From the NCBI GenBank assembly GCA_963841435.1, contig CAWJCS010000005.1, forward strand, positions 992,001 to 1,056,000: a stretch of DNA of 64,000 nt. The letters are read 5' to 3'. The stretch's first letter is position 1; every line of letters begins with the position of its first letter. Shown in pieces: positions 6,071 to 38,661 of this stretch. The notes under the pieces are model-generated. The model was not told the origin of the DNA, did no database searches, and worked only from the letters and a program-made list of their open reading frames with translations. The position numbers were made by a program, and so were the translations under genes. The DNA comes from an uncultured delta proteobacterium (GTDB taxonomy: Bacteria > Myxococcota_A > Polyangia > Polyangiales > Polyangiaceae).

Positions 6071-7854
6071 GGCGCGGCGGGCTCCCCCAGAACCACGCCG
6101 AGGTGCCGTGGCAAAACGCGCGCGCCGCCGAACCCGCGCGCGGAGCTGGTCCAGAGCTCCGCCTTCGCGGTCGCGAGCGCGTCGCGCGCGCGGCTGCGAA
6201 GCGCTTCCACGTCCTCGCCGCGAGCGACCCCGTTCGTGGGCAGCGCCTCGAGCGCGAGCGCCGCGAGCACTGCCGCGTCGTGCCCGAGCGCTTCGTACCA
6301 GCCGCCCGTGGGGGCCTTCGCGGGGTAGCTCCCCGTTTCGATCGCCAGGGCTCTCGCACCGAGCTCCGGCAGCACCGCGCTCGCGTCCAGTCCGAGCGCC
6401 ATCGACCAGCCGAGGCTCCCCGCAGAAAGCTCCGTCGAGATGTCGCGCGCGCACTGCTCGCCGCCCGTGACGAGAAGGGCGTCGACGCCCGTCTTCTTCC
6501 AGGTTCCGAGCGGAAAGCGCGCGCGCCCGGGCGAGGCCGGCTCGACATCGCACGAGAAGCCGCCGGGACCCACCCGCTCGACGTGGTGCGCGCCGCGCTG
6601 GGCCAGCGCCTCCTCGAGCGCATCGGCGACGGTTCGATCGTCGAGACCGAGCACGAAGGTAAAGCCGTGCTCCGGCGGCGGCGACGGCAGCGCGCGCAGC
6701 AAAAGCAGCGGGATGCCGAGCGTCTCGGCCTGGGCAGCCGCTCGCGCCGCGCTCTCGTCGTCACCACCCGCAACGATGAGGCTCGCGCCGTCTGCCGTGA
6801 GCGCCGAGAACGCGGCGGGCACGTCGTCGGTGCCGTAGCGCACGAGCAGCTCCACGCGCCGATCTCCCCGATTCTTCGTCGCGCCGAGCGCTCGTGTCAT
6901 GCCTTCGCTCACCGTCGTCGCGCGGCGGCGCTCGAGCGAGGTCCCGATGCCGAGCAAAAGACCCACGGCACGCCCCGCCACCGACGGCGCGCGCAATCCG
7001 CTCGACGCGAGCTCGACGAGGCGGCGCCCGTCCGGAGTGCCGCGAAGCGCTGCGGGGGCGACCTCGAGCAGGCGCTGCGCGAGCGGCGAGGCCGAGCGCT
7101 CGAGCGCCGCGCGCGTGAGCGCCGTCACGATGGTGTCGACGAGCCATTCCCGCCCGCTCGCGAGATCCTGGCGCGAACCGGAAACCTGCCTGAGCCCCGG
7201 GAGGGCAGCGAGCAGGTCGTCGGTCGGCACGAGCCCAATGAGCTTGGCCGCCGTCTGCCGCGCGCGCACCTGCCGGTCCGGCGGAGATTGCACGAGCCAA
7301 TCGAGCAGCGCAGTGAGCGCGACTTCGTAGTTGCCCGAGAGAAAGGCGGTGCGCGCCCGCTCCTCTCCGTACACGAAGCGCTCGTCGAGATCGATGATGC
7401 GTCCGCTCAGCGCGTCGAACACCGCCAGCGCACGGCGCGTCTCCCCCTCACGCGACAAGATCGCGGCTTCGGCGACGCGCGCGAAATCCCGCTGCGAGCC
7501 TCGGGGGCCATGAAGGATGGGCGCGATGAGCTCTCGAGCGCGCGCCCGCTCGCCGCGCTCGAGCAGCGCGAACGCGCTGTAGATGCGCACGTCGTCGGCT
7601 CGCTCGTCTTTGGGGTTGCGCGCGAGGAAGCCCTCGAGCTCGGCGGCAAGGGACGCGCGCCCGGCTGCGTCGGCGTCGAAGAAGCGCGCCCGGAGAGCTC
7701 GAAACTCCGTCTGCGGCCCCGTCGCGCCAGACAGCGACGCTTCGAGCGGCGGCGGCCGAGAGTCCGACGCGCAGGCGACCGAAAGCGTTAACGGAAGGGC
7801 CAGGACGGCGAGGGAGACCAGGGGCGGGCGAGGCACGGTGCGCGACACGGTCAT
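6067..7854 (-). CDS. Lipoprotein with TPR-like N-terminus and periplasmic-binding-protein-like C-terminus (LpoA-like)
   Basis: Lipobox SVAC, helical repeats, then AVGLLL...WYEALGHDAA, which resembles type I PBP/LpoA folds. Confidence 0.55.
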   Translation of the reverse strand: MTVSRTVPRPPLVSLAVLALPLTLSVACASDSRPPPLEASLSGATGPQTEFRALRARFFDADAAGRASLAAELEGFLARNPKDERADDVRIYSAFALLERGERARARELIAPILHGPRGSQRDFARVAEAAILSREGETRRALAVFDALSGRIIDLDERFVYGEERARTAFLSGNYEVALTALLDWLVQSPPDRQVRARQTAAKLIGLVPTDDLLAALPGLRQVSGSRQDLASGREWLVDTIVTALTRAALERSASPLAQRLLEVAPAALRGTPDGRRLVELASSGLRAPSVAGRAVGLLLGIGTSLERRRATTVSEGMTRALGATKNRGDRRVELLVRYGTDDVPAAFSALTADGASLIVAGGDDESAARAAAQAETLGIPLLLLRALPSPPPEHGFTFVLGLDDRTVADALEEALAQRGAHHVERVGPGGFSCDVEPASPGRARFPLGTWKKTGVDALLVTGGEQCARDISTELSAGSLGWSMALGLDASAVLPELGARALAIETGSYPAKAPTGGWYEALGHDAAVLAALALEALPTNGVARGEDVEALRSRARDALATAKAELWTSSARGFGGARVLPRHLGVVLGEPAAP

Positions 7855-7868
7855 GGTAGCGTGCCCGG

Positions 7869-8501
7869 GTGGCGCAAAGTAGCCTCCCCCACCCCCCGGG
7901 GCGGGCGCTCGAGCGCGCCTTCGAGCTCACGAGCGTCGCGCCCCTCGCGGTCCTCGCGGTGCTCCACGTCGCCGACTACGGCCGGGTGCTCCTCGGCGTC
8001 GAAAGCGTCGGCGCACGGCGCGCGCCCCCGGCCTTTCTGATTGGCGCCGAGGCGCTTTTCGTCTGGCTGCCGCTCGCCTTCCACGCGCTCTACGGCGTGC
8101 GCGTCTGGCTCGAACGCCGCGCGCGGGAGACGCCCGCGCCGGGTGCCGTGGGGCTGCTCGCCCTGCATCGGCTGACGGGCGCCGCGGCCGGGCTCTTCCT
8201 CATCGAGCATTTCGTGCGCTTCCGTCTGCCGATCCTGCGCGGCGAGGAGTACCCGTCCGACGCGGTCCAGCGCCTGGCAGCCGAGCTCTCCTCGACCCGG
8301 GGCGGCGTGCCGCTCGTCGGGGTCGCCGAGCTGTTCGGGGTGCTAGCGGTCGCGTATCACCTGGGTTATGGGCTCTACCGCGTCGCCGTTCGCCGCGCCG
8401 GCACGAACGGGCCGCGCGCGGCCCGGATCGCCGCAACCGTCGTCGGCGTGCTCGTCGGGCTCGTCGCGGCAGCCACGATCCTCGAGCTATCGGGCGGCTG
8501 A
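7869..8501 (+). CDS. Succinate dehydrogenase cytochrome b558 (SdhC)-like membrane protein
   Basis: Five TM segments with His in LHV, FHALYG, EHF and YHLGYG, plus LHRLTG, as in Bacillus-type SdhC. Confidence 0.6.
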   Translation: MAQSSLPHPPGRALERAFELTSVAPLAVLAVLHVADYGRVLLGVESVGARRAPPAFLIGAEALFVWLPLAFHALYGVRVWLERRARETPAPGAVGLLALHRLTGAAAGLFLIEHFVRFRLPILRGEEYPSDAVQRLAAELSSTRGGVPLVGVAELFGVLAVAYHLGYGLYRVAVRRAGTNGPRAARIAATVVGVLVGLVAAATILELSGG

Positions 8502-9757: not shown

Positions 9758-10549
9758 ATGCTCGTTTCCTGCCTCGCCGTCCTTCTCTTCGCGGGCTCCG
9801 CGCTCGCTGCGGGGCGCGTGCAATGGAAGAGTAAATCCTTCAAGGAGCGCAGCGACAAGGCGTGGATGCTGGAGCTTGCCATCTACCTGCCGCGCGCCCC
9901 GGACGTAGCGTACGTTCCGATGAAGTTCGAGTTCGAGCTCATCACCTACTTCGAGCGCGCTCTGCTCGACGGTCACGACGGCCCCGTGGAAAACAAGACG
10001 CCCATCAACGGCCGGCAACCGCTGATCGAGAGCGTGGACGTGGGCTTCATGGACGCGAGCACCTCGAACATCGAGAAGCGAACGCGCTTCAGCTTCAAGG
10101 TGAAGCGCGACCTCGGCTACGAGGCCGGCGAGTACAAGGTGACGATCCGCGACACGCGCAACGGGCAGGTCGTGGGCTCTCCGACGACCATCACGTTCGA
10201 CGGCGAGAACAACGTCATCAATCGGCGCTCGATCGTGTTCCAGGGCGACGACGGCAAGAAGAAGAAGAAGAAGGACAAGCCGAAGGACGAGGGCGCCTCC
10301 GACGACGAGAACAAGGACAGCGCCTCGGCTGACTCCGAGAAGAAGTCCGACGAAGGTTCGGGCGAGGGCTCGGACGACGGGGCGAGCGACGAAGGCTCGG
10401 ACAACTCCGGCGGTGACGACCCCCCGCCCGTCGAGAAGAAGAGCGGCTGCGGTTGCCGCGTGCCCGGCTCGCCGGGGTCAAAGGCTCCGGGCGGCGTGCT
10501 CGCGCTCGGCCTGGCGGCGGCGTTCCTCGCGCGTCGGCGGACTCGCTAG
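9758..10549 (+). CDS. MYXO-CTERM-sorted surface protein
   Basis: Signal h-region, acidic linker and C-terminal KSGCGCRVPG...LALGLAAAFLARRR. The true start may be TTG 9725 (see findings). Confidence 0.85.
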   Translation: MLVSCLAVLLFAGSALAAGRVQWKSKSFKERSDKAWMLELAIYLPRAPDVAYVPMKFEFELITYFERALLDGHDGPVENKTPINGRQPLIESVDVGFMDASTSNIEKRTRFSFKVKRDLGYEAGEYKVTIRDTRNGQVVGSPTTITFDGENNVINRRSIVFQGDDGKKKKKKDKPKDEGASDDENKDSASADSEKKSDEGSGEGSDDGASDEGSDNSGGDDPPPVEKKSGCGCRVPGSPGSKAPGGVLALGLAAAFLARRRTR

Positions 10550-10609: not shown

Positions 10610-11363
10610 ATGATTCCGATCAGCGACGACAACCCGACGCTCCGTTTTCCACTCGTGACGACCGGGCTGCTCGTCGCGCTCGGCGCGGTCTGGGTGCTCG
10701 TCCAGGGCGCCGGGTTCAGCGAGGCCGCGCTGAGCGCGAGCGTTTGCAACCTCGGCCTCGTGCCGGGAGAGCTCACGAAGCTCGCCCCGCTCGGCACCGC
10801 CATCCCGCTCGATCGTTCGCACGTCTGCGTCGTCAACAACGAGGCCATCAACGTGCTGACGCCCCTCACGTCGATGTTCCTGCACGGTAGCTGGGGTCAC
10901 CTGCTCGGCAACGCGCTGTTTCTGTGGGTCTTCGGCAACAACGTCGAGGACAGCATGGGGCGCTCTCGCTTCCTGGTCTTTTACCTGGTGTGCGGGCTCG
11001 CGGCCGCGGCGGCGCAGGTCGCGATGTCGCCCGCGTCGCCCGTGCCGATGGTCGGAGCTTCGGGGGCCATCTCCGGCGTGCTCGGCGGCTACCTCGTGCT
11101 CTATCCGCGCGTCAGGGTGAACATCCTCTTCATCCTCATCATCTTCATTCGCGTCATCAAGCTACCGGCCTACCTGGTGCTGCTCTGGTGGATCGGCCTT
11201 CAGCTCCTGACTGCGACGTTCCGGCGTCGAGTCCGGCGTCGCCGTCTGGGCGCACATCGGGGGGTTCGCTGCCGGGCTCGTCCTCGTCAAGTTCTTCGAA
11301 AATCCCGCGCTCGTCCACGAGCGCGATCGCGTCCGGCACCGCCTGCATCCCGGCTATCCCTGA
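10610..11363 (+). pseudogene. Rhomboid intramembrane serine protease, frameshifted near 11210-11225 (real lesion or sequence error)
   Basis: Frame 1 has MIPISDDNP, SMFLHGSWGHLLGN and GASGAI. The catalytic-His segment GVAVWAHIGGFAAG...HPGYP* is in the +1 frame, with stop at 11361-11363. Confidence 0.85.
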
Positions 11364-11387
11364 AGCGCGCCCAGGCGCGCCCCCCGG

Positions 11388-12620
11388 TCACTCCGTGAGG
11401 TGCATCCACGTTTCGCAGTCGAAGGCGGGAGCGTTTGGGTCCTTCGCCGAGGGCAGGAAGATGCGCCCCGGTGCTTCGCCGATAGGCGGAATCGAGTGGC
11501 AGGCGCCGCAATTGCCGGCGGGGGGCGGGCAGGGCATCTCGATGCGCTCGCCCCGATACTCGAGGGCCACGCGAAAGCCCTCTGGGAGCGGCGTGAGGGT
11601 GTAAAAGTTGCCGACGGCGTTCGTCGTCAGCTTCTCGACGAGCATCTCGTCGGGTGCCATCAGCATCACACTCACGCCGGGCACGCCCTGGCTCGTGGCC
11701 GCGTCGCGTGAGGGAAAGACGGTGCCGGCCGCGCTCCAGCGAGGGGCCGTGGGGTACTCCGAGTGCTCGGCGTGGCAGCGCAGGCAGTCGTCGCCGGGCT
11801 GCATCGTCGGGCCCACCATGAAGCCGAAATCGTCCTTGGCGTCGCTCGCGCAACCGGTCGCGAGCGACGCGAGCGCCATCAGTGCCACGACCCAGCGCTG
11901 CCTCACCCAGCGCGACACGGCCTCTGCCGCCCGCGCGACGGCGTCCGGCTCGCGAAACGACTCGCACACCTCGTCGAAGGAGGCACCGCGCGCGGCTCGT
12001 TCGAGGGCCACGGCTTCGTCCTCGGACAGCGGCTCGTGCGTGACGCCGAAGCGCCGCCGCCACACGGCCACCGCGATGCGCCGTGTTTTGCCGGCGCCGC
12101 TCGCCGGATCGCGAAATAGCTCGAGCGCGCGCTCGGACACTTCGAGCCGCCTGAGGTCCGGCGAAAGGGCGAGCCGCTTCGACGGCGCGTCCGGCTCCGC
12201 AAAGTCCTCCGCGCGCGCCGCGGACTCCGCATCGGGCGCGATCAGCGCATCGAGCCGCGCCCACTCGAGCCGTGCCAGGTCGATGATTGCATCCCCGGGG
12301 CGCTCGGCGTCGGGAAGCTCGGCGAGAAATGCCGCGAAGCGTTCGCCCACCCGTTCGATGGCGGGCGAGCGCGACGGGTGACGCATGAGGTACCCGACGC
12401 CGAGCGTCTCGAAGCGTTCGGCTCCGACGCACTCGACGACGCGCTCGAACGTCTCCCGCAGCACGCCGAGCTTGCGCGTCACGAGCGCCGAGCGATAGAT
12501 ACCGAGCCGCTCGGCGGCCGTGAGGCGACCGCCCGAAACGACGTGCTCCTCGGGAGCCGGGGGCGGCTCGGACGCGTGCAGCGTCTCCCAGAGCCACGTT
12601 TCACGCTGCGAAAGTCGCAC
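11388..12620 (-). CDS. DUF2063 (BufC/HvfC-type MNIO partner) fused in frame to a lipobox and a diheme cytochrome c domain
   Basis: ERLGIYR...RETF...YLMRHPSRS...GERFAAFL...DLARLEWA, then VVALMALASLATGC, CLRCH and CGACH with no intervening stop. Confidence 0.85.
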   Translation of the reverse strand: MRLSQRETWLWETLHASEPPPAPEEHVVSGGRLTAAERLGIYRSALVTRKLGVLRETFERVVECVGAERFETLGVGYLMRHPSRSPAIERVGERFAAFLAELPDAERPGDAIIDLARLEWARLDALIAPDAESAARAEDFAEPDAPSKRLALSPDLRRLEVSERALELFRDPASGAGKTRRIAVAVWRRRFGVTHEPLSEDEAVALERAARGASFDEVCESFREPDAVARAAEAVSRWVRQRWVVALMALASLATGCASDAKDDFGFMVGPTMQPGDDCLRCHAEHSEYPTAPRWSAAGTVFPSRDAATSQGVPGVSVMLMAPDEMLVEKLTTNAVGNFYTLTPLPEGFRVALEYRGERIEMPCPPPAGNCGACHSIPPIGEAPGRIFLPSAKDPNAPAFDCETWMHLTE

Positions 12621-13434
12621 CCAGCACCTCGCTTTCCACCGCCTTTACCCGCTCCATTTCCTGCTCGAGCTCCTCGAGGGTCGGCACGTTGTCGTCCCAC
12701 TCGACGATCGCCGGCACGCGACCGAAGCGCCTGAGCACGTGCCGGTAGAGCTCCATGACGGCGTCCGGGACGCGCGAACCGTGGTCGTCGATCGCGTGGG
12801 TTCCGTGGTCGGTGTGGCCGGCGAGATGAAGCTGGCGCACCCGCTCGACGGGCAGCGTCGCGACGAAATCGGTGGGCGAGAGCCCGTGGTTCTTGGCGTT
12901 GACGATCACGTTGTTCACGTCGAGGAGAATGAAGCAGTCCGCGCGCTCGGCGACGGCGCCGAGAAACGCCGCTTCACCGAGCTCGTTTTCCGGGAACTCG
13001 AGATAAGTCGAGACGTTCTCGACGAGGATGCGCTCACCCAGACGGTCCTGGACCCTCTGGATGCGCGCTGCCACGTGCACGAGCGCCTCCTCCGTGCGCG
13101 GCAACGGCCAGAGATCGTGGGCGTAGTGGCCGCGCTCGGTGCCGAAGCACAAATGATCCGAGACGAAGGCCGCGTCGATGCTCCGCCGCAACCGCGCGAG
13201 CTCGTCGAGGTAGCCGTCATTCAGGGGATCGACACCCCCGAGCGACAGGGAGACTCCGTGCAACGCCACGTCGGAGTCGCGGCGCACGCGTTCCAAAACG
13301 GCGCGAGGCCGTCCGCCTCGCCAAAGGAAGTTCTCCGTCACCACCTCGACGAGCCCGGCGGGCGAGCCGCGCTCGAGGAGCTCGGTGTAGTGGGGCACCC
13401 TCAGGCCGTAGCCATGGTGCCCGCCGTCCCGCAT
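12601..13434 (-). CDS. DUF692 family multinuclear non-heme iron oxidative enzyme (MNIO; BufB/HvfB/MbnB/TglH family)
   Basis: GLRVPHY, LHGVSLSLGG, SDHLCF, VENVSTY, LLDVNNVIVN, LHLAGH, IDDH, EWDD; the ATG overlaps the precursor stop (TGATG). Confidence 0.95.
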   Translation of the reverse strand: MRDGGHHGYGLRVPHYTELLERGSPAGLVEVVTENFLWRGGRPRAVLERVRRDSDVALHGVSLSLGGVDPLNDGYLDELARLRRSIDAAFVSDHLCFGTERGHYAHDLWPLPRTEEALVHVAARIQRVQDRLGERILVENVSTYLEFPENELGEAAFLGAVAERADCFILLDVNNVIVNAKNHGLSPTDFVATLPVERVRQLHLAGHTDHGTHAIDDHGSRVPDAVMELYRHVLRRFGRVPAIVEWDDNVPTLEELEQEMERVKAVESEVLGATFAA

Positions 13435-13709
13435 CAGCTCTGAACCGTACCGCCGAGCGCCTCGCAATCGGCCGCGGTCTTCGTGTAGGCCCAGCCCATG
13501 CCCATGCACTCGTTCAAGCCCTTGCACTCGTTGCTGCTCGGACCGCCGGCGCACTCGCTCATGCCGGCGCACTCGTTGCCGCCCAGGCACTTGACCTGCT
13601 GCGCAGCGGTGCCCGTGGGCTCGTCATCGCTGCCAGAACAACCCGTCATGACCAAAAGGCCTGCCACCGCGGCCGCGACGGCCGCACCCTTTCGGAGCTC
13701 TCGATGCAT
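13434..13709 (-). CDS. Cys-rich RiPP precursor lipoprotein (bufferin BufA2-like)
   Basis: Lipobox MTGC24; core KCLGGNECAGMSECAGGPSSNECKGLNECMGMGW...DCEALGG; directly upstream of and coupled to DUF692. Confidence 0.85.
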   Translation of the reverse strand: MHRELRKGAAVAAAVAGLLVMTGCSGSDDEPTGTAAQQVKCLGGNECAGMSECAGGPSSNECKGLNECMGMGWAYTKTAADCEALGGTVQS

Positions 13710-13737
13710 GGTGAACCTGCTTTGGATGCCGGGATCG

Positions 13738-13805
13738 CGAGCAGCGAAAGCGCTGCTCGAACCGACACCGCGCGTTCCCTATGGCAGCCGTTCGCGAGCG
13801 GTTAC
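13738..13805 (-). promoter_or_regulatory. Candidate ECF-sigma promoter GTAACC-N16-CATA and a perfect 9-bp 5'-UTR hairpin for the MNIO operon
   Basis: Minus strand: GTAACC at 13805-13800, CATA at 13783-13780; hairpin CGAGCAGCG-N4-CGCTGCTCG at 13738-13759. Confidence 0.4.
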
Positions 13806-13922
13806 CGGGGCGGCGACGAGTACCGCGTTTTCCTGCCAATCGAGCGGAATTGAAGCCAAATTCGGCGACGATTCCTGCGCGTGGCCGCCCGAGGGGCGGG
13901 GCCGGCCCCCGTTACGCGGTGC

Positions 13923-15125
13923 TCACGCGCGGCTGACCTGCTCGACGATCACCCCGATGGCCCGTTCGAGCACGTCTTCGGGCGTGAGCAGGCTCACGAC
14001 GGCATGCGGCGGACCGATGAAATCGAAGAAATACCCCGGCTGCACGAGGACCCCCTTCGCGAGGAAAAGGAGCGACCACTCCTCGTCGCTCAGGGTCGCG
14101 GGCAAGCGCAACACGGCATACCAGCCGCCCTCGACAGGCAGCACCGAGATCGGAGACCCCGCGCACGCCGCGGCGAGTTGGGCGACGTTTCGCGCGGAGC
14201 GCGCGCGGATGGCGTCCCGCGCGGTGCCCCGCGACGCGAGCAGGGCCGGCAGGGCGCGCTGCACGGCCGTCCCCGGCGAAAGAAACGTGTCGGCAACGAC
14301 CTCGAGCCGGGCGAGCGCTTGCTCGACGAGGGGGGCTTCGCCGCCGAGCGTCATCCAGGCAAGCTTTGCCTGCGGCAGCGCCGCCACCTTGGAGAGCCCG
14401 TCGAGCGCCACCGTCAGGAGCCCCGCTGATTCGAGCGCGGATTTCGCGCGCCGCGGGTCGTCGCCGAGCGCGTACTCGCCGAATACCTCGTCGGAGATCA
14501 ACGGCAGACCGAGCGCGCCGAGGCGTTCGAGCCCGGCTCGGTCGAGGAAGCTGCCCGTGGGGTTGTTCGGGCTCACCACGACGATGGCGCGGGCGCGTGG
14601 GGTGCGGACGCGCTCGACCTCCGCTACGTCGAGAAACCAGGCGCCGTCGAAGCCCAGGCGGTACGTCATCGGCGTGACGCCCTCGAGGCGCGCGAGATGC
14701 TCGAACAGCGGATAGCTCGGCGCCGGCACGAGCACCTCGTCGCCCGGGTCGCAGAAGAGCTTGAACGCGTAGGCGTACGCTTCGCTCGTGCTCGCCGTGA
14801 GCACCACGTGCCCGGGGTCCACGGCGAGACCGCGCTCGCGCCACAGCGTCGCCACGGCGTCGCGCGCCGTCGCGAGCCCGAACGGCGCCGGCTCGTACGC
14901 GAGGTCCGTCGCGGCCTCGGCGAGCGCAACGCGCGTGGCCTGGGCGTACGGGATGCCTGCCTCGGTGGGATTGGACACCGTGAGATCCGAGAGCGGTAAA
15001 GCGCGCCCTCGCGCGGCGGCGAGCGCGACCGCGAGGCGATTGGGAGCGAGCTCGACGGCGCTCCGTTGCGAAAACGGGCCCGTTTCAGCAGCGGGCGGGG
15101 GTGCCCCGCGGTCGGAACGCGTCAC
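13923..15125 (-). CDS. PLP-dependent aminotransferase, class I/II
   Basis: DLTVSNPT, TASTSEAY, PSYPLF, SPNNPTG, ISDEVF, GLSK (PLP Lys), VQPGYFF. Confidence 0.9.
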   Translation of the reverse strand: MTRSDRGAPPPAAETGPFSQRSAVELAPNRLAVALAAARGRALPLSDLTVSNPTEAGIPYAQATRVALAEAATDLAYEPAPFGLATARDAVATLWRERGLAVDPGHVVLTASTSEAYAYAFKLFCDPGDEVLVPAPSYPLFEHLARLEGVTPMTYRLGFDGAWFLDVAEVERVRTPRARAIVVVSPNNPTGSFLDRAGLERLGALGLPLISDEVFGEYALGDDPRRAKSALESAGLLTVALDGLSKVAALPQAKLAWMTLGGEAPLVEQALARLEVVADTFLSPGTAVQRALPALLASRGTARDAIRARSARNVAQLAAACAGSPISVLPVEGGWYAVLRLPATLSDEEWSLLFLAKGVLVQPGYFFDFIGPPHAVVSLLTPEDVLERAIGVIVEQVSRA

Positions 15126-16356: not shown

Positions 16357-17358
16357 ATGGGTCCGCTCGACAAGGAATGGCCGAACTTCGACGCCATGCC
16401 GGAAGACGACGCCCTCACCCGGGCGCGTCCCCGCGGCCAGAAGCTCGCGCGCTGGGTGTGGTGGGACGGGGATTTGCGCGAGGCGGACCAGCTCAGCGTC
16501 CACTACTACGCCAACGCCCTTCACTACGGCACCGCCGCGTTCGAAGGCATCCGGGTCTACCCGAGCGAGCACGGTCCCGTGCTCGTGCGCCTGCGCGACC
16601 ACCTCGAGCGCCTGCTCATCTCGGCGCGCCTGTACGGCATGCGCGTCCCATTCGACGTCGAGGCACTCGCGCGCGGCGCCATCGAGGTCACGCGCAAGAA
16701 CGGCACCGTGAACGGCTACCTACGCCCCCTCGCCTACTACGGCGAAGGACCCATCGACCTGAAACCGAAGCTCGAGTGCAAGGTCCACGCGTTCGTGGCC
16801 GTGCGCGAGCTCGGCACGTTCCTGGGCGACGACGCGCTCCGAAACGGCGTCCGCGTCATGGTCTCGAGCTACCGCAAGATCCACCATTCGATGCTGCCCA
16901 CCATGGCAAAGGCGAGCGGCCACTACGCCAACAACGTGCTCGCCGCCCACGAGGCGCTCGATCACGGCTTCGACGACGCCATCCTGCTCAACCACGACGG
17001 CAGCGTGGCGTGTGCCACCGGCTGCAACGTGTTCTTCGTCAAGAACGGCAAGCTCTTCACGAACGACGAGACGAGCTCCATCGTGCCCGGCATCACCCGC
17101 GACTGCGTGTTCGATCTCGCCGCGGAGCGCGGCATCGAGATCCAGGTGCGCGCCTTCACGCGCGAGGAGCTCGAGCGTGCCGACGAAGTGTTCCTGACGG
17201 GCACGGCCGCCGAGATCACCCCCGTGCGCGAGATCGACGGCGTCAAGCTTCGCACCGGCAAGGGCACGCTCGGCGCCTGGTTCCAGCGGGCGTACTTGCG
17301 CGCCGTCACCGGTAAGGACGAGCGACGCATTGGGTGGCTTTCGCGCGTGCGTAGCTGA
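16357..17358 (+). CDS. ilvE: Branched-chain amino acid aminotransferase (class IV)
   Basis: ALHYGTAAFEGIR, YLRPL, KASGHY, GITRD, ADEVFLTGTAAEITPV. Confidence 0.9.
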   Translation: MGPLDKEWPNFDAMPEDDALTRARPRGQKLARWVWWDGDLREADQLSVHYYANALHYGTAAFEGIRVYPSEHGPVLVRLRDHLERLLISARLYGMRVPFDVEALARGAIEVTRKNGTVNGYLRPLAYYGEGPIDLKPKLECKVHAFVAVRELGTFLGDDALRNGVRVMVSSYRKIHHSMLPTMAKASGHYANNVLAAHEALDHGFDDAILLNHDGSVACATGCNVFFVKNGKLFTNDETSSIVPGITRDCVFDLAAERGIEIQVRAFTREELERADEVFLTGTAAEITPVREIDGVKLRTGKGTLGAWFQRAYLRAVTGKDERRIGWLSRVRS

Positions 17359-17416
17359 GCGGCAAGAACGCGCGGTTTTGACGCGCGACGGACGGGCGAG
17401 GTATGATGGAAACAGT

Positions 17417-17746
17417 ATGTTCGACACGCTGAGTCCGGACGAGCGCCTGTTACTTCTTCGTTTCGTCTGCGCGTTCGCCTGGACCGACCTCGTCGTCGCG
17501 CCTCGCGAGCGCGCGTTCGTCGAGCGCCTCGTGAGCCGCCTCCGGCTCGACGCGGACGACGCCGCCCAGGTGCGCGAGTGGCTCGACGTGGCGCCCGCGC
17601 CGGGCTCCGTGGACCCGAATGCCGTGCCTGCGGAACATCGCCGCGCCTTCTTCGAAAGTGTCCGCGCTCTCGTGTATGCCGACGGCAAGGTCGACCCCGA
17701 AGAGCGGGAACAGCTCGATCGCTTGCAGCGCGCGCTTTCCCCCTGA
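17417..17746 (+). CDS. TerB-like family protein
   Basis: AFAWTDLVVAPRERAFV and VYADGKVDPEEREQL, the paired TerB-type motifs. Confidence 0.75.
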   Translation: MFDTLSPDERLLLLRFVCAFAWTDLVVAPRERAFVERLVSRLRLDADDAAQVREWLDVAPAPGSVDPNAVPAEHRRAFFESVRALVYADGKVDPEEREQLDRLQRALSP

Positions 17747-20414: not shown

Positions 20415-21146
20415 TCAGGGATCCGAGAGCAGCGCGAACGGCCGATCCTGCGAGGGTGCCCCGCTGCCGTGCTGGAGCAGCTCCGAGCGGAAGATGACGG
20501 TGCCGTCAGCTGCCGTGATCTCGCCGGCGAGATCGCGCCCCGGCAGCGCAGCGCTCGCCGTGATGCCGAGGCTCGCCTCCTTGTCACCGAGGCGCACGCG
20601 ATAGCTCTTCGTCTCGCAGTCGAGCTCCGCGGGGCCGACCGTGCAGGTGCCGCGGGTCGTCGCGGCGAGCCCGTCGTTCTCGTCCGGTACGACGCTCGTC
20701 GCGGCCATGAGCGCGTCATAGTCGGCGAGGGTGCCGTTCTCTTCGGCGCCGCCGGAAACGCGAGTTACGCGAGCAATTTCGCCGTTTTCGTCGAGCCAGG
20801 TGCGGATGCCGCGGCTGCCCGTGGAGTCCTCGAGCGTGTACTCGATGATCCAGGCATCGTTCTCGTGCGCCACGACGCGCTCGGTGAGGAGCGCAGGCTG
20901 CTTTCTGAAGCTGCCGCTGATCATGTGCACGAAGAAGTCGCCGACGTGGCGATTGGAAGCGGTTTCACCCGCGGCGGGAGACTCACTCGCGGGTGCGGGC
21001 GGGATCGCCGAAGGCGCGGAGGCGGGCGGCGCCTCCGGAAAGAGCACGCTGCAACCGACGCTCGTCAGAACGAGCAACGGGAGCGCACCGAACAGGCACA
21101 CTGGACGGCAGGCGGGGGGAGGGAAACCCGAACTCGACTTGGGCAT
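20415..21146 (-). CDS. Hypothetical lipoprotein
   Basis: Lipobox SVGC, Pro/Ala linker and a beta-rich domain. Confidence 0.65.
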   Translation of the reverse strand: MPKSSSGFPPPACRPVCLFGALPLLVLTSVGCSVLFPEAPPASAPSAIPPAPASESPAAGETASNRHVGDFFVHMISGSFRKQPALLTERVVAHENDAWIIEYTLEDSTGSRGIRTWLDENGEIARVTRVSGGAEENGTLADYDALMAATSVVPDENDGLAATTRGTCTVGPAELDCETKSYRVRLGDKEASLGITASAALPGRDLAGEITAADGTVIFRSELLQHGSGAPSQDRPFALLSDP

Positions 21147-21247
21147 GCTGTCGGCCTTATCGGACCCTCGACACACGGGCCAACTTTCGGGGAAAAGCCG
21201 CCGTACGGGTGAATTCCGGGGATGAAAGCTGGTATCTTGGGACGTCG

Positions 21248-22846
21248 ATGCCGAACGCGCCCGACGCCCCGGAGAGCGATAGCGCGCGCTCGCAGCGCGA
21301 GCGAACTGAGAGCGCGCTCGAGCAATCGGAGCAGCGCTTCCAGAGCGTCGTCCAGAGCGCGCCCGACGGGGTGGCGATCCTGCGCGGTGCCACGATTCTC
21401 TATTTGAACCCGCGTGGCGCCCGAATGCTCGGGCTCGAGACCCCGGAGGCCGGCATCGGACGACGCATCACCGAGTTCATCGAGTCGGATCAGTCCGGGG
21501 ACGCCGCGGAGCGCATTCGCGACCTCTTGCGAACGGGCAACCAGGCGGAGACGCCGCACGAGTACCGCTCCCACTCACTCGACGGCCGCACGCTCGTCGT
21601 GGAGATTAGCTCCATTCGCATCGAGTTTCTGGGGGGACCCGCCGTGCTCGCCTTCGCCCGCGACGTGACCGAGCGAAAGGCGCTCCAGGCCCGCGTGGCC
21701 CAGGCCGAGCGGCTCTCCGCGCTCGGCGTGCTCTCCGCCGGCGTGGCGCACGAGATCAACAACCCGCTCGCCTACGTGCTCTTGAATCTGGAGTTTCTCG
21801 AGCAATACCTCGACTCCACTCCGGACGGCCCGGAACGCGAGCTTTTGCTCAAGCGCGTGCTCGAGGCGAAACACGGCGCCGACCGCGTCGCGACCATCGT
21901 GCGTGATCTTCGTACCTTCGCGCGTGACGATGCGACCTCGCGCGGCGCCGTCAGCGTCGAGACGACGCTCGAGACGGCGATCAACCTGGTGTCGGCTTCG
22001 CTCGCCACGCGAGCGCGGCTGATCCGCCGCTACCGACCGGTCTCGCTCGTGCTCGGCAATGCCGCCCGACTCGAGCAGGTGTTCGTCAACCTGCTCGTCA
22101 ATGCCGCGCAAGCGATTCCCGAGGGTGGGTCGCCCGAGACACACGCGATCACGGTTGCCGTTTCGGAAAGCGAAGCCGGCGTACAGGTCGCGTTCACCGA
22201 CACGGGCGTCGGCATGCCGGAAGAAACCAAGCAGCAGATCTTCGATCCCTTCTTCACGACGAAAGCCCCGGGTGTCGGCACGGGCCTCGGGCTTCCCATC
22301 TGCCAGGGCATCGTGCGAGCGCACGGCGGCTCGCTCAACGTCGACACGACCGAGGGCGAAGGCAGCACCTTCACGGTGACGCTGCCCAAATTCGTGGGGG
22401 TTCCCATGGTGAGCGAGCCCGAACAACCGGCGCCGCGCGGCGACCAGGGCCGCGGCAGGGTGCTCATCGTCAACGACGACGTGAACGTGGGCAAGACGCT
22501 GAGCCTCGCCCTTCAGCCGATTCACGACATCACGGTGGTGACGAGCGGACCAGCAGCTCTCGCCGAGCTCCGAGCGGCGCGCGGTAGCTACGACGCGATC
22601 CTCTGCGACGTGCTCATGCCCGGCATGACGGGCCGAGAGCTCTTCGACGCTGCACGGGACGAGCTCCCCGAGCTCGACGCGCGCTTCATTTTCATGTCCG
22701 GCGCGCTGTTCACGGGCGGCACGGCCGAGCTCGCCGCGACCTCGCGCAATCGCGTGCTCGAGAAGCCCTTCGACATCCAGCAGGTGCGGGACGCCTTGCA
22801 GAGCGTGGTCGCACGCGTACGACAGCGCTCGTCGCGCGAGCCCTGA
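21248..22846 (+). CDS. Hybrid sensor histidine kinase (PAS-HisKA-HATPase-REC)
   Basis: PAS ending RDVTERK, AHEINNPL, NLLVNA, DTGVG, FFTTK, GTGLGL; receiver ILCDVLMP...KPF. Confidence 0.95.
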   Translation: MPNAPDAPESDSARSQRERTESALEQSEQRFQSVVQSAPDGVAILRGATILYLNPRGARMLGLETPEAGIGRRITEFIESDQSGDAAERIRDLLRTGNQAETPHEYRSHSLDGRTLVVEISSIRIEFLGGPAVLAFARDVTERKALQARVAQAERLSALGVLSAGVAHEINNPLAYVLLNLEFLEQYLDSTPDGPERELLLKRVLEAKHGADRVATIVRDLRTFARDDATSRGAVSVETTLETAINLVSASLATRARLIRRYRPVSLVLGNAARLEQVFVNLLVNAAQAIPEGGSPETHAITVAVSESEAGVQVAFTDTGVGMPEETKQQIFDPFFTTKAPGVGTGLGLPICQGIVRAHGGSLNVDTTEGEGSTFTVTLPKFVGVPMVSEPEQPAPRGDQGRGRVLIVNDDVNVGKTLSLALQPIHDITVVTSGPAALAELRAARGSYDAILCDVLMPGMTGRELFDAARDELPELDARFIFMSGALFTGGTAELAATSRNRVLEKPFDIQQVRDALQSVVARVRQRSSREP

Positions 22847-22858
22847 AAAAAGCGCCGC

Positions 22859-25800
22859 TCAGCCGCCCATCAACGACGGCAGCTCGGCACTCAGCACGAT
22901 TCCCTCCGCCGCAGCGCGCGACCGAATCTTTTCCAGGAAATCGGGCAGCATCACGGCCGCCCCGGTCGCGAGCGCGGACGCGCCCACGGCCGTGGCCCAG
23001 CCGAAGGGGCCGAGCGGACGACAGCCGAACGCCTGACTGACGCCCGGCGTCTGCACGATCGCCACGAGCACCGCCGTCGAAGCGAGGCTCGTGACGATCA
23101 CGGGACGGCTCATGCCGCCGGAAAACAGCGTCTGGCCGAGCTGCGTGCCGACGAGCGCCACGAGACCCACGGTGCTCGCCCGCGCGCGCGTGCCCGTGAA
23201 GTGCGCGATACCCCAGGCCGCGCTCGCCCCGAGCGCCGTGAGCGCCGCGCGAGCGACAATCTGACGGGTCAGGAGCTCCCCGAGGGAGGCGTCCGGCCCC
23301 TCGTGGGCGAGCGCGGCGGGCGACCGCGGCACGGGGGGGCGGAGCGCGATGGCCATGGCAGGCGCCACATCGGTGAGCAGGTTGACGAGCAGGAGCTGGC
23401 GCGGATTGAGCGGCGGGCGGCCGTCGATCAAGCCCGCGCCCAGCGTGAAGCCGATCTCGCCGAGGTTGCCGCCGACGAGAATCGAGACGGCGTCGCGCAC
23501 GGCGGCCCACATCGCGCGACCCTCGAGCACGGCGTCGACCAGCGTCTCGAGGCGCGCGTCGGTGAGCAGAATGTCGGCGGCGGCGCGGGCGGCCGTCGTG
23601 CTGTGCTCACCCACGGCGATACCCACGTTGCTGAGCCGGATGGCGGGCGCGTCATTGGCACCGTCACCGACCATGGCGACCACGCGCCCGGCGCGCTGCA
23701 GAGCACGCACGATGCGCACTTTCTGCGCGGGCGTCACGCGCGCGAAGACCGAGACGCGGCGAATGCGACGTGCCAGGTCGGCGTCGCTGATGTCCGAGAG
23801 CTCGGCGCCCGACAGCACACCTCCCGGACTCTGGAGCCCGAGGTCGCGAGCGACGGCCTGCGCCGTGCCGGGGTGGTCGCCCGTGATCATCACGGTGCGG
23901 ACCCCCGCGCGCGACAGCTCCACGATGGCCTGGGCCGCGCTCGCGCGCACGGGGTCGCTGAAGGCGAGGAAGCCGAGGAACGTGAGCCCGACCAACCTTC
24001 TCGGGTCGAGGCTGTCACCCTCGGCGACGAGCCGCTCGGCCACGGCCAGCACGCGCAAACCCTGGGCGGCGAGGGCCGCCGCGCGCCCGCCGAGCTCGGC
24101 GGAGGTCGCGTCATCGAGCGGCTGGCGCTGACCGCCACGCCGCACACCGGTGCAGCGCGCGAGCACCACTTCGGGCGCCCCCTTCACGTCGATGACGACG
24201 CCCTGGTCGCAGTTGCCGACCGTCGCGTGGTAGCCGCGCCCGGCCTCGAACGACACCTCATAGGAGCGGCGAAACCCGGGGCAGGCGTAGTCGAGCGGCA
24301 GCTCGAGGCGGTCGGCGGCCCGGTACAGGGCCTGCTCGGTGGGGTCGAACGAGCGGCCCCCGCGCTCCGCCGACGCCCTGAGCGCGGCGCCGAGCACGGG
24401 CAGCGTCACGGCGTCGAGGTTCGGCAGTCGCTGCTCGGCGCTGCCGTCGGCCGCGAGGACGAGCTCGATGCGTCCCTCCGTGAGCGTCCCCGTCTTGTCG
24501 ACGCACAGCACGTCGATGCGACCGAGCGCTTCGATGCTGCGGACGTTGCGCACGAGCGCGCCGCGCTTGGCGAGGCGCTCCGCGGCGGCGAGCTGGGCGG
24601 CCGTCGCGAGCAGCGGCAACCCTTCGGGCACCGATGCCACCGCGAGACTCACGCCGCTGCCCACGAGATCCTCGAGCTTTCGTCCCCGCACGAGGCCGGC
24701 GATGACGAGCCCCGCTCCGGCTCCGAGCGCGATGGGGCCGGTCAGCTGGATCAGCGAGCGCAGGCGCCGCTCGACGCCGCCGCGCGCGGCGTCCATCTTG
24801 CTCGCGACCGCGCCTCGACGCGCTTCGGTCTCGTCGCCAACGGCGACGACGACGCCGGTCACGCGGCCCGCCGCGATTGCCGTGCCTTCGTAGAGCATCG
24901 AGCTGCGGTCCGCGACGTTGAGATCGAAGGAAGGCTTCGCCTGCTTTTTGACCGGCATCGACTCGCCCGTCATGCTCGAGGCGTCGATCTCGAGCGAGTC
25001 GGCCTCGAGGATGCGACAGTCGGCCGGCACGACGTCGCCCGCCGCGAGCAGCACGACGTCGCCGTGCACGAGCTCCACGTCGTCGATCTCCGAAAGCTGT
25101 CCGCCGCGGCGCACCATGGCCCGGCGCCGCGCCGAGCGTGAAAGCTCCTTGATGGCCTGCTCCGTGCGGAAGCGCTGCACGCCGCCCACGAGCGCATTGA
25201 GCACGACGACGCCGCCCACCATCGTGGCGTCGGCGAACGAGCCCACCGCCGCCGAAAGTCCCGCGCCGGCCGCGAGCAGCGGCGCGAGCGGATTGAACAG
25301 CTCGTCGCTCACGGCCTCGAGCAGCTCGACGACGCCCGACCGGCGGGCAATCTCGCGGCGCCGGCGCAGGATGGCCTGCTTGCGCTCGAGTCCTTCCGGA
25401 CCCGTACCGAGGCGCACGAGCACGGCGCGCACGTCGAGCGCGTGCCACGGCGTGCGGTCGCGAGGTGGCGGCAGCGCGCGACGCACGAGGTTCAGCGAGC
25501 CGCGCGCCCCGTTCAGCATGGAGACGATCGACGCCGCATTGACGACGGCGATCACGCGCCGGCCCGTGAGGGGCAAAACGCCACCCGCCGAGACGAGCGC
25601 ACCGAGCGTCGCGGCACCGAGCGCGATGTTGACGCTCTGCTTGGCGACCTGACGGGCGACGCTCGCCGCGTGGATGATGAAGCGCGGCTCGGAAAGGTCG
25701 TCCGAGCAGAGAATGTGCGCGCCCCAGGGCGGCGCTTCCCCGGGGCGCAGGAGTCCGATCGCGACATCGGCCGCCGCGAGCGCCGCCGCCGTGCCCGTCG

Positions 25801-27286
25801 CGCCGATCACGCACACGCCGCGACCCTCGCGCTGCAGCCGCTGGATGCCGCGCAGCATGCCCTCGCCGTCGGGGATGGTGTCGTCGGCGGCGATGCCGTG
25901 CAGCACGGCGTCGGTGCGCGCCGCAATCACGACGCGCATCCCCGACTCGTGGGCCGCGGCCACGAGCTCGTCGATGCCGAGGCGCGAAACGATCTCGATC
26001 TCGGCGAGCCCCACGACACGACCCTTGAGCTCGAGCGAGAGCACGAGACCGCCCTGATCGCCGAGCTCGCCGGCGCCGGCGACGAGCTCCAAGGGCAGCT
26101 CGCCCGAGTGGGCGCCGAGCGGCTCGAGCACCATGCCCTCCTGTACGCGGCGCGCGACGGGGCGGTCGGGGTCGAACAGCGCGGCCACTGCGTCGCGCGC
26201 CGCCTGCTCGTCCTGATCGGGCGCGAGCACGAGCCGCCGGATCTCCCAGCGGTGGCGCGCCACGAGCTCCCCCGTGAGCACGAGGCAGTCGACGCGGTCG
26301 AGGCGCCGCAACACCGCCGGGTCGAGCACGAGGACCCCACGGCGTGCGAGCGCACGACCGAGCTCGGCGGAGAAAACGTCGCGTCCCAGCTGCGCCGGCT
26401 TGGGCAACCCACCGAACAGCGCCGCCACGGCGCGCTGCACGTTGCGCGTCGCGATGAAGCTCACCAAGAAACCGGCGAGCGACACGAACACGGCGCGATC
26501 GGAATACTCCTCGATGGGTCCGCGCGGCAGCGGGCAGGGTCGCGGCTCCACGGCAGCAATGGGCGGCGCTTCCGGCACGTTGCGCCCGTAAAGCTCGGGC
26601 TCCCGCGCCTCGAAGCTGCGACGGCGCGCGTTGACCTCCGACAGCTTGACGGCATGGTGCAAGAGCTCGACGAACGCGCTGCCCGGGCGCTGTGCCACGC
26701 CATGGCCGAACGCAGCACCCACCTCGAGCATCAGGTCGGCGCGCAATGGACCGAGCCGCTCGTCGAGCGCTCGCCTGAGCCGTGGCGTCAACTGCACGAT
26801 TTGCAGGAGCGACGCGAGCGTGCCCGCGGCGCGCACCGCAGGAATCAACGAGAAGCGCAGGGCGCTGCCGCCCGCGAACGCGAGCGCCTCGGCCGCCAGC
26901 ACGACGAGCAACCGCTCGCTGGCCTCCGGATCGACGGGGTGCTGCCACGCCGTGTCGCGAAACGGAGCCGTGTGCACCGAAACGGAGCGCTCGGCAGCCT
27001 CGACGCACTCGACGAGCTCCTCGAGCGTCAGACCCTCGTCCTCGAGCTCGATCACGATGCGCTGCAGTGGCGCGCTGACCCGCACCGAGTGAACGCCGGG
27101 AAGCTCGCAGAGCTCGGCTTCGAGCGCGCGCTTGAGCTCGTCGAGCTCCACGCCGCGCACGTCTCTGAGCTCGACGTGGGCTCGTGCCGGGCCGAGCCAG
27201 GCGCGCCGCTGCCGCGGACCGAATTGTCGCGCCGTGACGGAGAGTGCGTTCTGCACCCGGGTGAGGACGCTGAAGACGGTCGCCAT
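22859..27286 (-). CDS. Large cation-translocating P-type ATPase (CtpH/CtpI-like architecture)
   Basis: TGES, PEGLP, DKTGTLT, KGAPE, MITGDH, GDGAND; about 600-aa N-terminal extension. Confidence 0.92.
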   Translation of the reverse strand: MATVFSVLTRVQNALSVTARQFGPRQRRAWLGPARAHVELRDVRGVELDELKRALEAELCELPGVHSVRVSAPLQRIVIELEDEGLTLEELVECVEAAERSVSVHTAPFRDTAWQHPVDPEASERLLVVLAAEALAFAGGSALRFSLIPAVRAAGTLASLLQIVQLTPRLRRALDERLGPLRADLMLEVGAAFGHGVAQRPGSAFVELLHHAVKLSEVNARRRSFEAREPELYGRNVPEAPPIAAVEPRPCPLPRGPIEEYSDRAVFVSLAGFLVSFIATRNVQRAVAALFGGLPKPAQLGRDVFSAELGRALARRGVLVLDPAVLRRLDRVDCLVLTGELVARHRWEIRRLVLAPDQDEQAARDAVAALFDPDRPVARRVQEGMVLEPLGAHSGELPLELVAGAGELGDQGGLVLSLELKGRVVGLAEIEIVSRLGIDELVAAAHESGMRVVIAARTDAVLHGIAADDTIPDGEGMLRGIQRLQREGRGVCVIGATGTAAALAAADVAIGLLRPGEAPPWGAHILCSDDLSEPRFIIHAASVARQVAKQSVNIALGAATLGALVSAGGVLPLTGRRVIAVVNAASIVSMLNGARGSLNLVRRALPPPRDRTPWHALDVRAVLVRLGTGPEGLERKQAILRRRREIARRSGVVELLEAVSDELFNPLAPLLAAGAGLSAAVGSFADATMVGGVVVLNALVGGVQRFRTEQAIKELSRSARRRAMVRRGGQLSEIDDVELVHGDVVLLAAGDVVPADCRILEADSLEIDASSMTGESMPVKKQAKPSFDLNVADRSSMLYEGTAIAAGRVTGVVVAVGDETEARRGAVASKMDAARGGVERRLRSLIQLTGPIALGAGAGLVIAGLVRGRKLEDLVGSGVSLAVASVPEGLPLLATAAQLAAAERLAKRGALVRNVRSIEALGRIDVLCVDKTGTLTEGRIELVLAADGSAEQRLPNLDAVTLPVLGAALRASAERGGRSFDPTEQALYRAADRLELPLDYACPGFRRSYEVSFEAGRGYHATVGNCDQGVVIDVKGAPEVVLARCTGVRRGGQRQPLDDATSAELGGRAAALAAQGLRVLAVAERLVAEGDSLDPRRLVGLTFLGFLAFSDPVRASAAQAIVELSRAGVRTVMITGDHPGTAQAVARDLGLQSPGGVLSGAELSDISDADLARRIRRVSVFARVTPAQKVRIVRALQRAGRVVAMVGDGANDAPAIRLSNVGIAVGEHSTTAARAAADILLTDARLETLVDAVLEGRAMWAAVRDAVSILVGGNLGEIGFTLGAGLIDGRPPLNPRQLLLVNLLTDVAPAMAIALRPPVPRSPAALAHEGPDASLGELLTRQIVARAALTALGASAAWGIAHFTGTRARASTVGLVALVGTQLGQTLFSGGMSRPVIVTSLASTAVLVAIVQTPGVSQAFGCRPLGPFGWATAVGASALATGAAVMLPDFLEKIRSRAAAEGIVLSAELPSLMGG

Positions 27287-27291
27287 ACGTT

Positions 27292-38542: not shown

Positions 38543-38661
38543 GGCGTAACCCACCTTCCACTCACCGAGTTTCATTCTACCCGACCCGCCGCGGCACTGC
38601 ACCCCTCGGGGACCCCTCGCTCGCGCCCCGGCCCCGGGGGAAAGGCGTTTTTGCTTGTAAG

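Follow-up and report, generated by a model that had tools for sequence, protein, structure and literature searches.

The minus strand of the window analysed here, a stretch of 64,000 nucleotides (nt) from contig CAWJCS010000005.1 (assembly GCA_963841435.1) of an uncultured Polyangiaceae bacterium, carries three overlapping open reading frames (ORFs) that, judged from their family matches, very probably form a cluster of the bufferin-2 type. They encode a Cys-rich precursor (BufA2-like), a multinuclear non-haem iron-dependent oxidase (MNIO, BufB-like) and a BufC-like partner, the last of which continues in one frame through an internal lipoprotein-type signal into a domain with two CxxCH motifs. 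On balance, we lean towards reading the whole as a four-part bufferin-2 cluster for a ribosomally made and post-translationally modified peptide (RiPP), in which a lipidated bufferin would be accompanied by a co-anchored haem redox partner at the position of DoxX. What is apparently new is the unclassified di-CxxCH lipoprotein, a conserved protein that is joined to BufC through a signal peptide. Among RiPPs made by MNIOs, no group is larger than the bufferins. The part played by DoxX, the fourth gene of their clusters, is poorly understood, and the cluster described here hints at what it may be.

Precursor, MNIO and partner of a bufferin-2 type cluster

The preliminary description of this DNA had placed three overlapping genes on the minus strand, and ORF calls in the window reproduced both their coordinates (Table 1) and their overlaps. 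The precursor stop codon (TGA, 13436-13434) and the ATG at 13434-13432 have one base in common, forming TGATG at 13434, and because of this overlap the MNIO is read as 12601-13434, with 277 amino acids (aa). The partner ORF starts with GTG at 12620, overlaps the MNIO gene, which ends at its stop codon (12603-12601), by 20 nt (12601-12620), and stays open until the TGA at 11390-11388; this start is supported by 11 full-length homologues that begin at the aligned position. Since overlaps recur in two related loci (an identical 20-nt overlap in L003 and one of 4 nt in L005), the genes are taken to be translationally coupled.

The precursor matched the NCBIfam model of BufA2 (NF050166), its sole NCBIfam match, with an E-value (E) of 2.9e-15 over profile positions 2-78 of 79 and a bit score just short of the curated cut-off, and the same model was matched by all 33 of its aligned homologues (best E 1.7e-19). 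Six Cys residues lie in its core, at positions 41, 47, 53, 62, 68 and 82; C41, C47, C53, C68 and C82 were invariant across the 33 aligned precursors, and C62 was conserved in at least 90% of them. This is the pattern of six Cys known from Buf2 (Buf_6/12Cys), and the claim of a Cys-rich precursor was borne out by the conserved core.

Signal peptides and lipoboxes were judged by eye from sequence and alignment. The precursor begins with a basic n-region, followed by a hydrophobic run and by LVMTG-C, which we assigned to a signal peptide of the signal peptidase II (SPII) type (residues 1-23) with Cys24 as the lipobox Cys. The lipobox that had been proposed for this protein gained support, as Cys24 was invariant in 33/33 sequences; G23 was nearly invariant in the same alignment, and a lipobox was present in five of five related precursors with a complete N-terminus. 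The suggestion that anchoring by lipidation was a novelty did not hold up, since SPII-type Buf2 precursors are already published, with about 16% of Buf2 bufferins carrying lipoprotein signal peptides (Antoine et al. 2025, PMC12452194). In two related loci the precursor is a 12-Cys lipoprotein bufferin, in which a single ORF places a pair of six-Cys domains after one shared lipobox signal (L008, 3814-4332; L014, 565-1509).

The second gene product matched the Pfam family PF05114 (E 1e-94), passed the NCBIfam MNIO_BufB model NF050167 (320.5 bits; cut-off 310) and matched the di-iron structure 3BWW (E 7.8e-44), with which it shares the motifs HGxSLS, DHL, VEN, DVNN, HxAGH and DxH in identical form. 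It had been described as an MNIO with intact metal-ligand motifs, and these matches agree with that description. The site-3 ligands of HvfB, N175, D242 and H244 (10.64898/2026.07.17.739211), correspond to the second N in its DVNN motif and to the D and H in its DxH motif, under an inferred numbering offset of one residue. A natural fusion of MNIO and partner was seen in P0050, a 511-aa metagenomic protein with both PF05114 and PF09836, which its source labels as partial and as gammaproteobacterial.

The first part of the third ORF matched PF09836 (DUF2063) at 53.9 bits (cut-off 27.2), which confirmed the proposed DUF2063 partner. Its AlphaFold2 (AF2) model matched the DUF2063 structure 3DEE (E 8.4e-6; template-modelling score 0.74 on the target) and also chain A of the TglHI holoenzyme entries 8HI7 and 8HCI, and it contains a domain resembling a RiPP recognition element (RRE), the DUF2063-RRE make-up of a PME-type 1 partner, here encoded after the MNIO. 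The score against the HvfC equivalog model NF050145 was 44.3 bits, with a cut-off of 142, so that on these profiles the partner is a DUF2063 protein and not an HvfC equivalog. The length of the ORF is atypical, at 410 aa against the reported 250-260.

An internal lipoprotein-type signal at the junction with the di-CxxCH domain

Residues 241-257 of the 410-aa ORF, SRWVRQRWVVALMALASLATG followed by Cys257, are its sole strongly hydrophobic stretch (hydropathy maximum at residues 243-258), and the last helix of the BufC part (...SRWxRxRW) continues directly into the hydrophobic region of this signal. Cys257 was invariant in 16/16 aligned sequences, among them the stand-alone lipoprotein P0016. 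The junction is spanned in one frame by 14 other proteins from independent assemblies, 11 of them 409-415 aa long; the fused proteins share 46-54% identity with the window ORF, and despite this divergence the lipobox Cys is retained in all 15.

In six related genomic loci (L001, L003, L004, L005, L008 and L014) the arrangement is split: the DUF2063 gene ends in a stop codon in every case, and next to it, in a different frame, comes the cytochrome-like gene, which has a Met, a signal peptide and a lipobox of its own, so that its N-terminal lipoprotein signal occupies the position homologous to the internal signal of the window ORF. Because both halves are separate genes in 6/6 related loci, the form in the window is a lineage-specific merger. 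The preliminary description had called this ORF a fusion of partner and cytochrome, which is accurate in that the ORF is continuous and needs amending in that its halves do not form a simple two-domain protein: they are joined by a lipoprotein signal that is internal here and stands at the N-terminus only where the homologues are split.

In a tree of the di-CxxCH domains, the 15 fused proteins, including that of the window, formed one clade (ultrafast bootstrap 99; Shimodaira-Hasegawa-like approximate likelihood ratio test 82), with the split loci L003 and L001 as its neighbours. A fused protein of 500 aa, P0085, was placed elsewhere in the tree, and we therefore count at least two fusion events. 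A third fused form, P0079 (471 aa), was left out of the tree by the anchor pattern.

The di-CxxCH domain and its family

The sequence CxxCH is the canonical attachment motif of haem c. Both motifs of the domain were invariant in 16/16 junction-aligned relatives and in 36/36 aligned domains, and hence are not there by chance. In the 36 domains the elements GxxCxxCH, GT, TNxxGNFYT and the second CxxCH were invariant and no further His was conserved; the only near-invariant candidates for axial ligands were two Met residues, one before each CxxCH. This pattern probably fits two His/Met haemes, and we regard the assignment of the domain as haem-binding as very likely on sequence grounds. An AF2 model built with the 36-domain alignment was a confident beta-sandwich (predicted local distance difference test score 85.5; predicted template-modelling score 0.80).

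The domain belongs to a large family. A profile search returned 3,803 clusters (at 50% identity) with E ≤ 1e-3 and 2,437 with E ≤ 1e-10; members are mostly 130-200 aa long, and some have 2-5 tandem copies. About 30 of 36 members carried a lipoprotein-type signal by a crude pattern that made a few false calls. Many of the 31 longer members that were scanned had Cytochrom_C or Cytochrome_CBB3 domains or matches of the multihaem type, and two had DUF2063. A search of the ESM Atlas with the C-terminal domain gave clusters named 'hypothetical protein' only, with Myxococcota the commonest source, and a PDB sequence search with the 410-aa ORF gave no match at E ≤ 1. Judged from these sequences, the domain is a general family of small cytochrome-like lipoproteins, some of whose members have come to serve in bufferin operons. 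This flags a large, unannotated group of small di-CxxCH lipoproteins whose fold is unseen among solved cytochromes.

Genes for cytochromes adjoin the domain in L009/L016, L020 and L032, and in L029 a cytochrome c domain lies in the same ORF; L007 and L018 have YceI beside the domain, and L037 and L039 have DUF3570 there. In L009 (2823-4151) the domain is the C-terminus of a multihaem protein beside genes for MtrC-like, NapC/NirT-like and cbb3-type cytochromes, and in L002 (5950-7155) it is fused to Spondin_N. The window itself contains a gene (36530-38602, minus strand) whose product, 690 aa long, ends in a class I cytochrome c domain, which suggests that the organism makes c-type cytochromes.

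Conserved gene order and the absence of DoxX

Related loci were taken from species-representative genomes, with genes called by a simple in-house picker. A neighbourhood survey, which the preliminary description had proposed as a check, found the order precursor, MNIO, DUF2063 protein, di-CxxCH lipoprotein in all six loci in which an MNIO adjoins the cytochrome domain. As the flanks of these six operons are not conserved, the four genes are the module, and the di-CxxCH lipoprotein is conserved beside lipo-BufA2, BufB and BufC in Polyangiaceae. Around the 33 stand-alone domain loci, 106 of the 164 listed ORFs were scanned; the loci shared no partner, and neither an MNIO nor a DUF2063 protein nor DoxX turned up.

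DoxX (PF07681) was not found among 40 window proteins (ORFs picked by third-position G+C content, a procedure that small genes could escape), nor among 40 neighbour proteins of the six related operons (0/40). The absence of DoxX that had been reported for this locus was thus seen again, and it is an ordinary feature, since the founding buf2 cluster of Caulobacter also has no bufD (PMC11626156); for the same reason the accompanying statement that such operons are usually followed by DoxX applies to buf1 and hvf and not to that founding cluster.

In L003 a gene for an extracytoplasmic function (ECF) sigma factor (7155-7943) lies directly after the cytochrome lipoprotein gene, which recalls the control of Caulobacter buf operons by SigF/NrsF. 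Within about 8 kb of the operon, both the window (17330-17746 and 20993-22846, both plus strand) and L005 (1296-2471 and 9271-10857) encode a protein with a TerB domain and a hybrid of PAS histidine kinase and receiver; this pair may represent residual synteny or a shared regulator.

Proposed mechanism

In Buf2 of Caulobacter the first and last Cys are disulfide-bonded, and the four central Cys lose 4 Da each (PMC11626156). By analogy, BufB and BufC of the present cluster would act in the cytoplasm and convert the four central Cys of the precursor to 5-thiooxazoles, the first and last core Cys would form a disulfide, and Sec export of the peptide would be followed by lipidation at Cys24 and by cleavage, giving a membrane-tethered copper chelator. 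The 410-aa protein would insert through residues 241-257 with its N-terminus inside and its C-terminus outside, and its C-terminal part would receive two c-type haemes, probably with His/Met ligation, and be lipidated at Cys257. LspA would probably cut this part from BufC, which would be left tail-anchored beside the Sec machinery; we see the arguments for and against such polyprotein processing of the 410-aa ORF as evenly balanced. If it occurs, an internal lipoprotein signal in a two-domain ORF would be an unusual route to a pair of proteins separated by the membrane.

The cytochrome and the lipo-bufferin would share one face of the membrane, and the cytochrome could pass electrons to or from bound copper or the thiooxazole thiolates, in the accessory redox position presumed for DoxX in buf1/hvf clusters. 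Electron exchange of this kind is suggested by the prediction that both proteins are lipoproteins, by the very different affinities with which Buf1 binds Cu(II) and Cu(I) (dissociation constants of ~6e-15 M for Cu2+ and ~7e-20 M for Cu+; PMC11626156), and by the existence of Buf1 proteins fused to Cytochrom_C or to Cytochrom_C and FGE-sulfatase (PMC12452194) together with the annotation of BufD as a DoxX-type oxidoreductase (PMC11626156). The redox-partner role of the cytochrome is nevertheless put forward as a tentative proposal. A complex prediction for the cytochrome domain with the precursor core scored 0.01 (mark 0.32), a value that counts neither for nor against binding. A lineage with a haem-motif lipoprotein at the DoxX position leads to the testable idea that the accessory component handles electrons for copper or for the thiooxazole thiolates.

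A more far-reaching version of this mechanism, which we consider rather improbable, treats the ORF as a trans-membrane polyprotein in which one internal signal both tethers the RRE-containing partner and the MNIO bound to it next to Sec and exports the dihaem cytochrome, which Lgt and LspA would lipidate and cut. Maturation, export, lipidation and cytochrome delivery would then be coupled at a single place on the membrane, and the cytochrome would be a non-homologous replacement of DoxX; were this true, DoxX elsewhere would gain a redox role towards bound metal.

Points against the reading and alternative explanations

Several results weigh against a bufferin-2 cluster with a co-anchored haem redox partner. 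The BufA2 score of the precursor (56.2 bits) lies just below the curated cut-off of 60. Foldseek found no match for the domain model in the PDB at E ≤ 0.001 (best E 8e-3) and no cytochrome fold, the best matches being transthyretin-like, carboxypeptidase-regulatory and CnaB domains, and in Pfam and NCBIfam no family was found for the domain, the matches being sub-threshold only (Paired_CXXCH_1, CarboxypepD_reg and SoxX); the earlier label 'diheme cytochrome c' can be kept for its two invariant CxxCH motifs, and has to be dropped as regards a classical cytochrome c fold or a curated family. The family is not dedicated to bufferins, because 33 of the 39 domain loci lack an MNIO within 6 kb; the neighbourhoods were heterogeneous, and the MNIO-linked domains formed no single clade in a tree whose base was unresolved. 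Since BufD1 is dispensable for the copper phenotype of Caulobacter (PMC11626156), whatever occupies the 'DoxX position' may be non-essential. Attachment of haem, lipidation and cleavage are predictions, as are the binding of copper and the transfer of electrons. Finally, the window ORF has four possible in-frame starts just before its hydrophobic segment (GTG at residues 235, 239 and 245, ATG at 248), and separate translation of the cytochrome is therefore possible.

The main rival, on the unlikely side in our estimate, builds on this last point: it accepts the same module and holds that the cytochrome lipoprotein is translated alone from an internal start such as GTG239 (M-RQRW-hydrophobic stretch-LATG-C), in which case BufC read-through products would be minor, the single ORF would be without mechanistic meaning and function would equal that of the split operons. 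It draws on all six genomic relatives, in which partner and cytochrome are encoded apart and have a Met and a signal peptide each, on the presence of the sequence GAGG 12-14 nt ahead of two of the four starts just before the hydrophobic segment, and on P0085, which keeps a complete internal M-R-L signal peptide. However, the spacing of this Shine-Dalgarno-like motif is poor, no aligned column near the junction retains a start-codon residue (V, M or L) consistently across the 15 fused proteins, and the fused frame has both arisen at least twice and been kept across the divergence of these proteins.

It is improbable, in our judgement, that the dihaem lipoprotein is instead a periplasmic enzyme of bufferin maturation or repair, for example forming the CysI-CysVI disulfide or re-reducing thiooxazole thiols that have become oxidised, or a general periplasmic electron carrier co-regulated under copper or oxidative stress. 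The occurrence of the domain mostly away from MNIO genes would suit such a role, and methanobactin operons encode a dihaem MauG-like protein, MbnH, that acts on a protein partner. A specific link to the bufferin is indicated, however, by the conserved gene order, the lipoboxes on both proteins and the repeated fusion to bufC, and the domain has no motif of a catalytic type besides the CxxCH motifs and the conserved TNxxGNFYT loop. A labile extra S-S bond between modified residues, which has been reported for Buf1 and Buf2 (PMC11626156), would be in keeping with maturation or repair.

Direct binding of Cu or Zn by the CxxCH motifs, with the domain acting as a lipoprotein metallochaperone that exchanges metal with the bufferin, seems very unlikely to us: a beta-sandwich unlike any known cytochrome fold, the lack of a matching curated cytochrome model and the setting in metal homeostasis all suit it, but the motif is that of haem c attachment, among relatives there are fusions to genuine cytochrome c domains and copies within multihaem proteins, and the two near-invariant Met are suited to be axial ligands. 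That the C-terminal domain is a second MNIO substrate, presented in cis by the fused partner and modified on its motif Cys, is hardly credible, even given the suggestion in PMC12452194 that MNIO substrates of this class are exported Cys-containing proteins recognised with their signal peptide, since the domain is found in thousands of clusters mostly without MNIO genes, CxxCH differs from the Cys context of bufferins, and a dedicated BufA2 precursor is present.

Comparison with known systems

The precursor, oxidase and partner of the cluster in the window have close counterparts in buf2ABC of Caulobacter vibrioides (Leprevost et al., PNAS 2024, PMC11626156): a six-Cys BufA2-type precursor with a Sec-type signal, BufB, a BufC with DUF2063 and RRE, no DoxX, and the same expected chemistry of four thiooxazoles from central Cys and one disulfide. 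It differs in its SPII signal, in a precursor that falls just short of the NCBIfam BufA2 cut-off and in a fourth component, the di-CxxCH lipoprotein, that is fused in frame to BufC. With buf1ABCD and hvf (oxazolin) it shares a precursor, an MNIO, a DUF2063 protein and a membrane-associated accessory, suspected of a redox function and dispensable for modification, but there the accessory is a polytopic DoxX, whose function the hvf paper terms unknown, whereas here it is a haem-motif lipoprotein, and the precursors there come from other families (DUF2282; EGKCG repeats).

Methanobactin operons, with MbnH and MbnP, resemble the present cluster in that a periplasmic dihaem protein is encoded beside an MNIO-made copper chelator. 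MbnH, however, is of the MauG/cytochrome c peroxidase family and has another fold, and unlike the protein described here it is neither a lipoprotein nor fused to a RiPP partner.

Lipoprotein-type bufferins and DAG-RiPPs (PMC12452194, PMC13056109) are likewise modified by an MNIO, carry a lipobox and use the lipoprotein pathway. MNIO-modified lipidated RiPPs have been shown experimentally, and bufferins and oxazolins with SPII signals have been listed (Chen et al. 2026, PMC13056109); lipidation was shown for DybA and is predicted for the SPII-type Buf2 bufferins, as it is here from sequence. In the accessible portions of these reports we found no description of a cytochrome-like lipoprotein or of a BufC fusion. 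The Buf1-cytochrome fusions mentioned above tie a bufferin system to a c-type cytochrome domain in an independent, physical way; there a class I cytochrome c (PF00034) is attached to the precursor, and in the window an unclassified di-CxxCH beta-sandwich is attached to the partner, across a membrane segment. Extra conserved genes in bufferin clusters are said to be very rare (PMC12452194), and in the literature searched, which extended to the accessible text of PMC13056109 and stopped short of the hypothetical lipoproteins in its Table S6 (cluster IX), neither a cytochrome-like lipoprotein nor a fusion of DUF2063 and cytochrome was found to be mentioned for bufferin clusters. Of the architecture that had been thought undescribed, lipidation and the lack of DoxX are therefore already known or ordinary, and the di-CxxCH lipoprotein merged with BufC appears to be undescribed.

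Feature coordinates and genomic context

The features of the operon are collected in Table 1. The window has a G+C content of 70%, encodes a MYXO-CTERM protein and has metagenome-assembled genomes of Polyangiaceae as its nearest relatives, which together mark it as myxobacterial DNA. The gap upstream of the precursor gene may hold the promoter; a scan of positions 11000-14100 found no sigma-70-like site, and its two terminator-like matches both lay inside the upstream aminotransferase gene.

Table 1. Positions in the window of the bufferin-2 type operon and of the predicted features of its products.
Feature	Position	Strand	Length	Basis or detail
bufA2-like precursor gene	13434-13709	minus	91 aa	ORF call; NCBIfam BufA2 match just below cut-off
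Precursor signal peptide and lipobox Cys24 (codons 1-24), predicted	13638-13709	minus		from sequence; alignment of 33
bufB-like MNIO (DUF692) gene	12601-13434	minus	277 aa	ATG within TGATG
BufC-like partner, internal lipoprotein signal and di-CxxCH domain, single ORF	11388-12620	minus	410 aa	
BufC-like partner part, residues 1-240, DUF2063 and RRE-like domain	11901-12620	minus		PF09836 and AF2 model
Internal lipoprotein-type signal segment, residues 241-257	11850-11900	minus		hydropathy; LATG-C257 lipobox-like
Di-CxxCH beta-sandwich, putative dihaem c-type cytochrome, residues 258-410	11391-11849	minus		AF2, family profile
First CxxCH (C279, C282, H283; residues 279-283)	11772-11786	minus		near-invariant Met273 before
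Second CxxCH (C371, C374, H375; residues 371-375)	11496-11510	minus		near-invariant Met362 before
Gap upstream of precursor, possible promoter region	13710-13922	minus	213 nt	

A gene for a rhomboid-family protease (10610-11398, plus strand; PF01694, E 1e-28) is convergent with the operon, and 11 nt at the 3' end of the 410-aa ORF belong to both genes. The final ~60 codons of this rhomboid ORF are rich in Arg and Pro, unlike the tail of a membrane protein, and its true stop may be earlier; the gene is not conserved beside the operon in the six related loci. Further out, the plus strand encodes a protein with a MYXO-CTERM sorting domain and a long low-complexity stretch rich in Lys, Asp and Ser (9758-10549), in keeping with a myxobacterial origin, and the minus strand a P-type ATPase of 1,525 aa (22859-27436), whose first ~750 residues have no Pfam match and whose catalytic part resembles cation (type II-like) pumps and is not obviously that of a copper pump.

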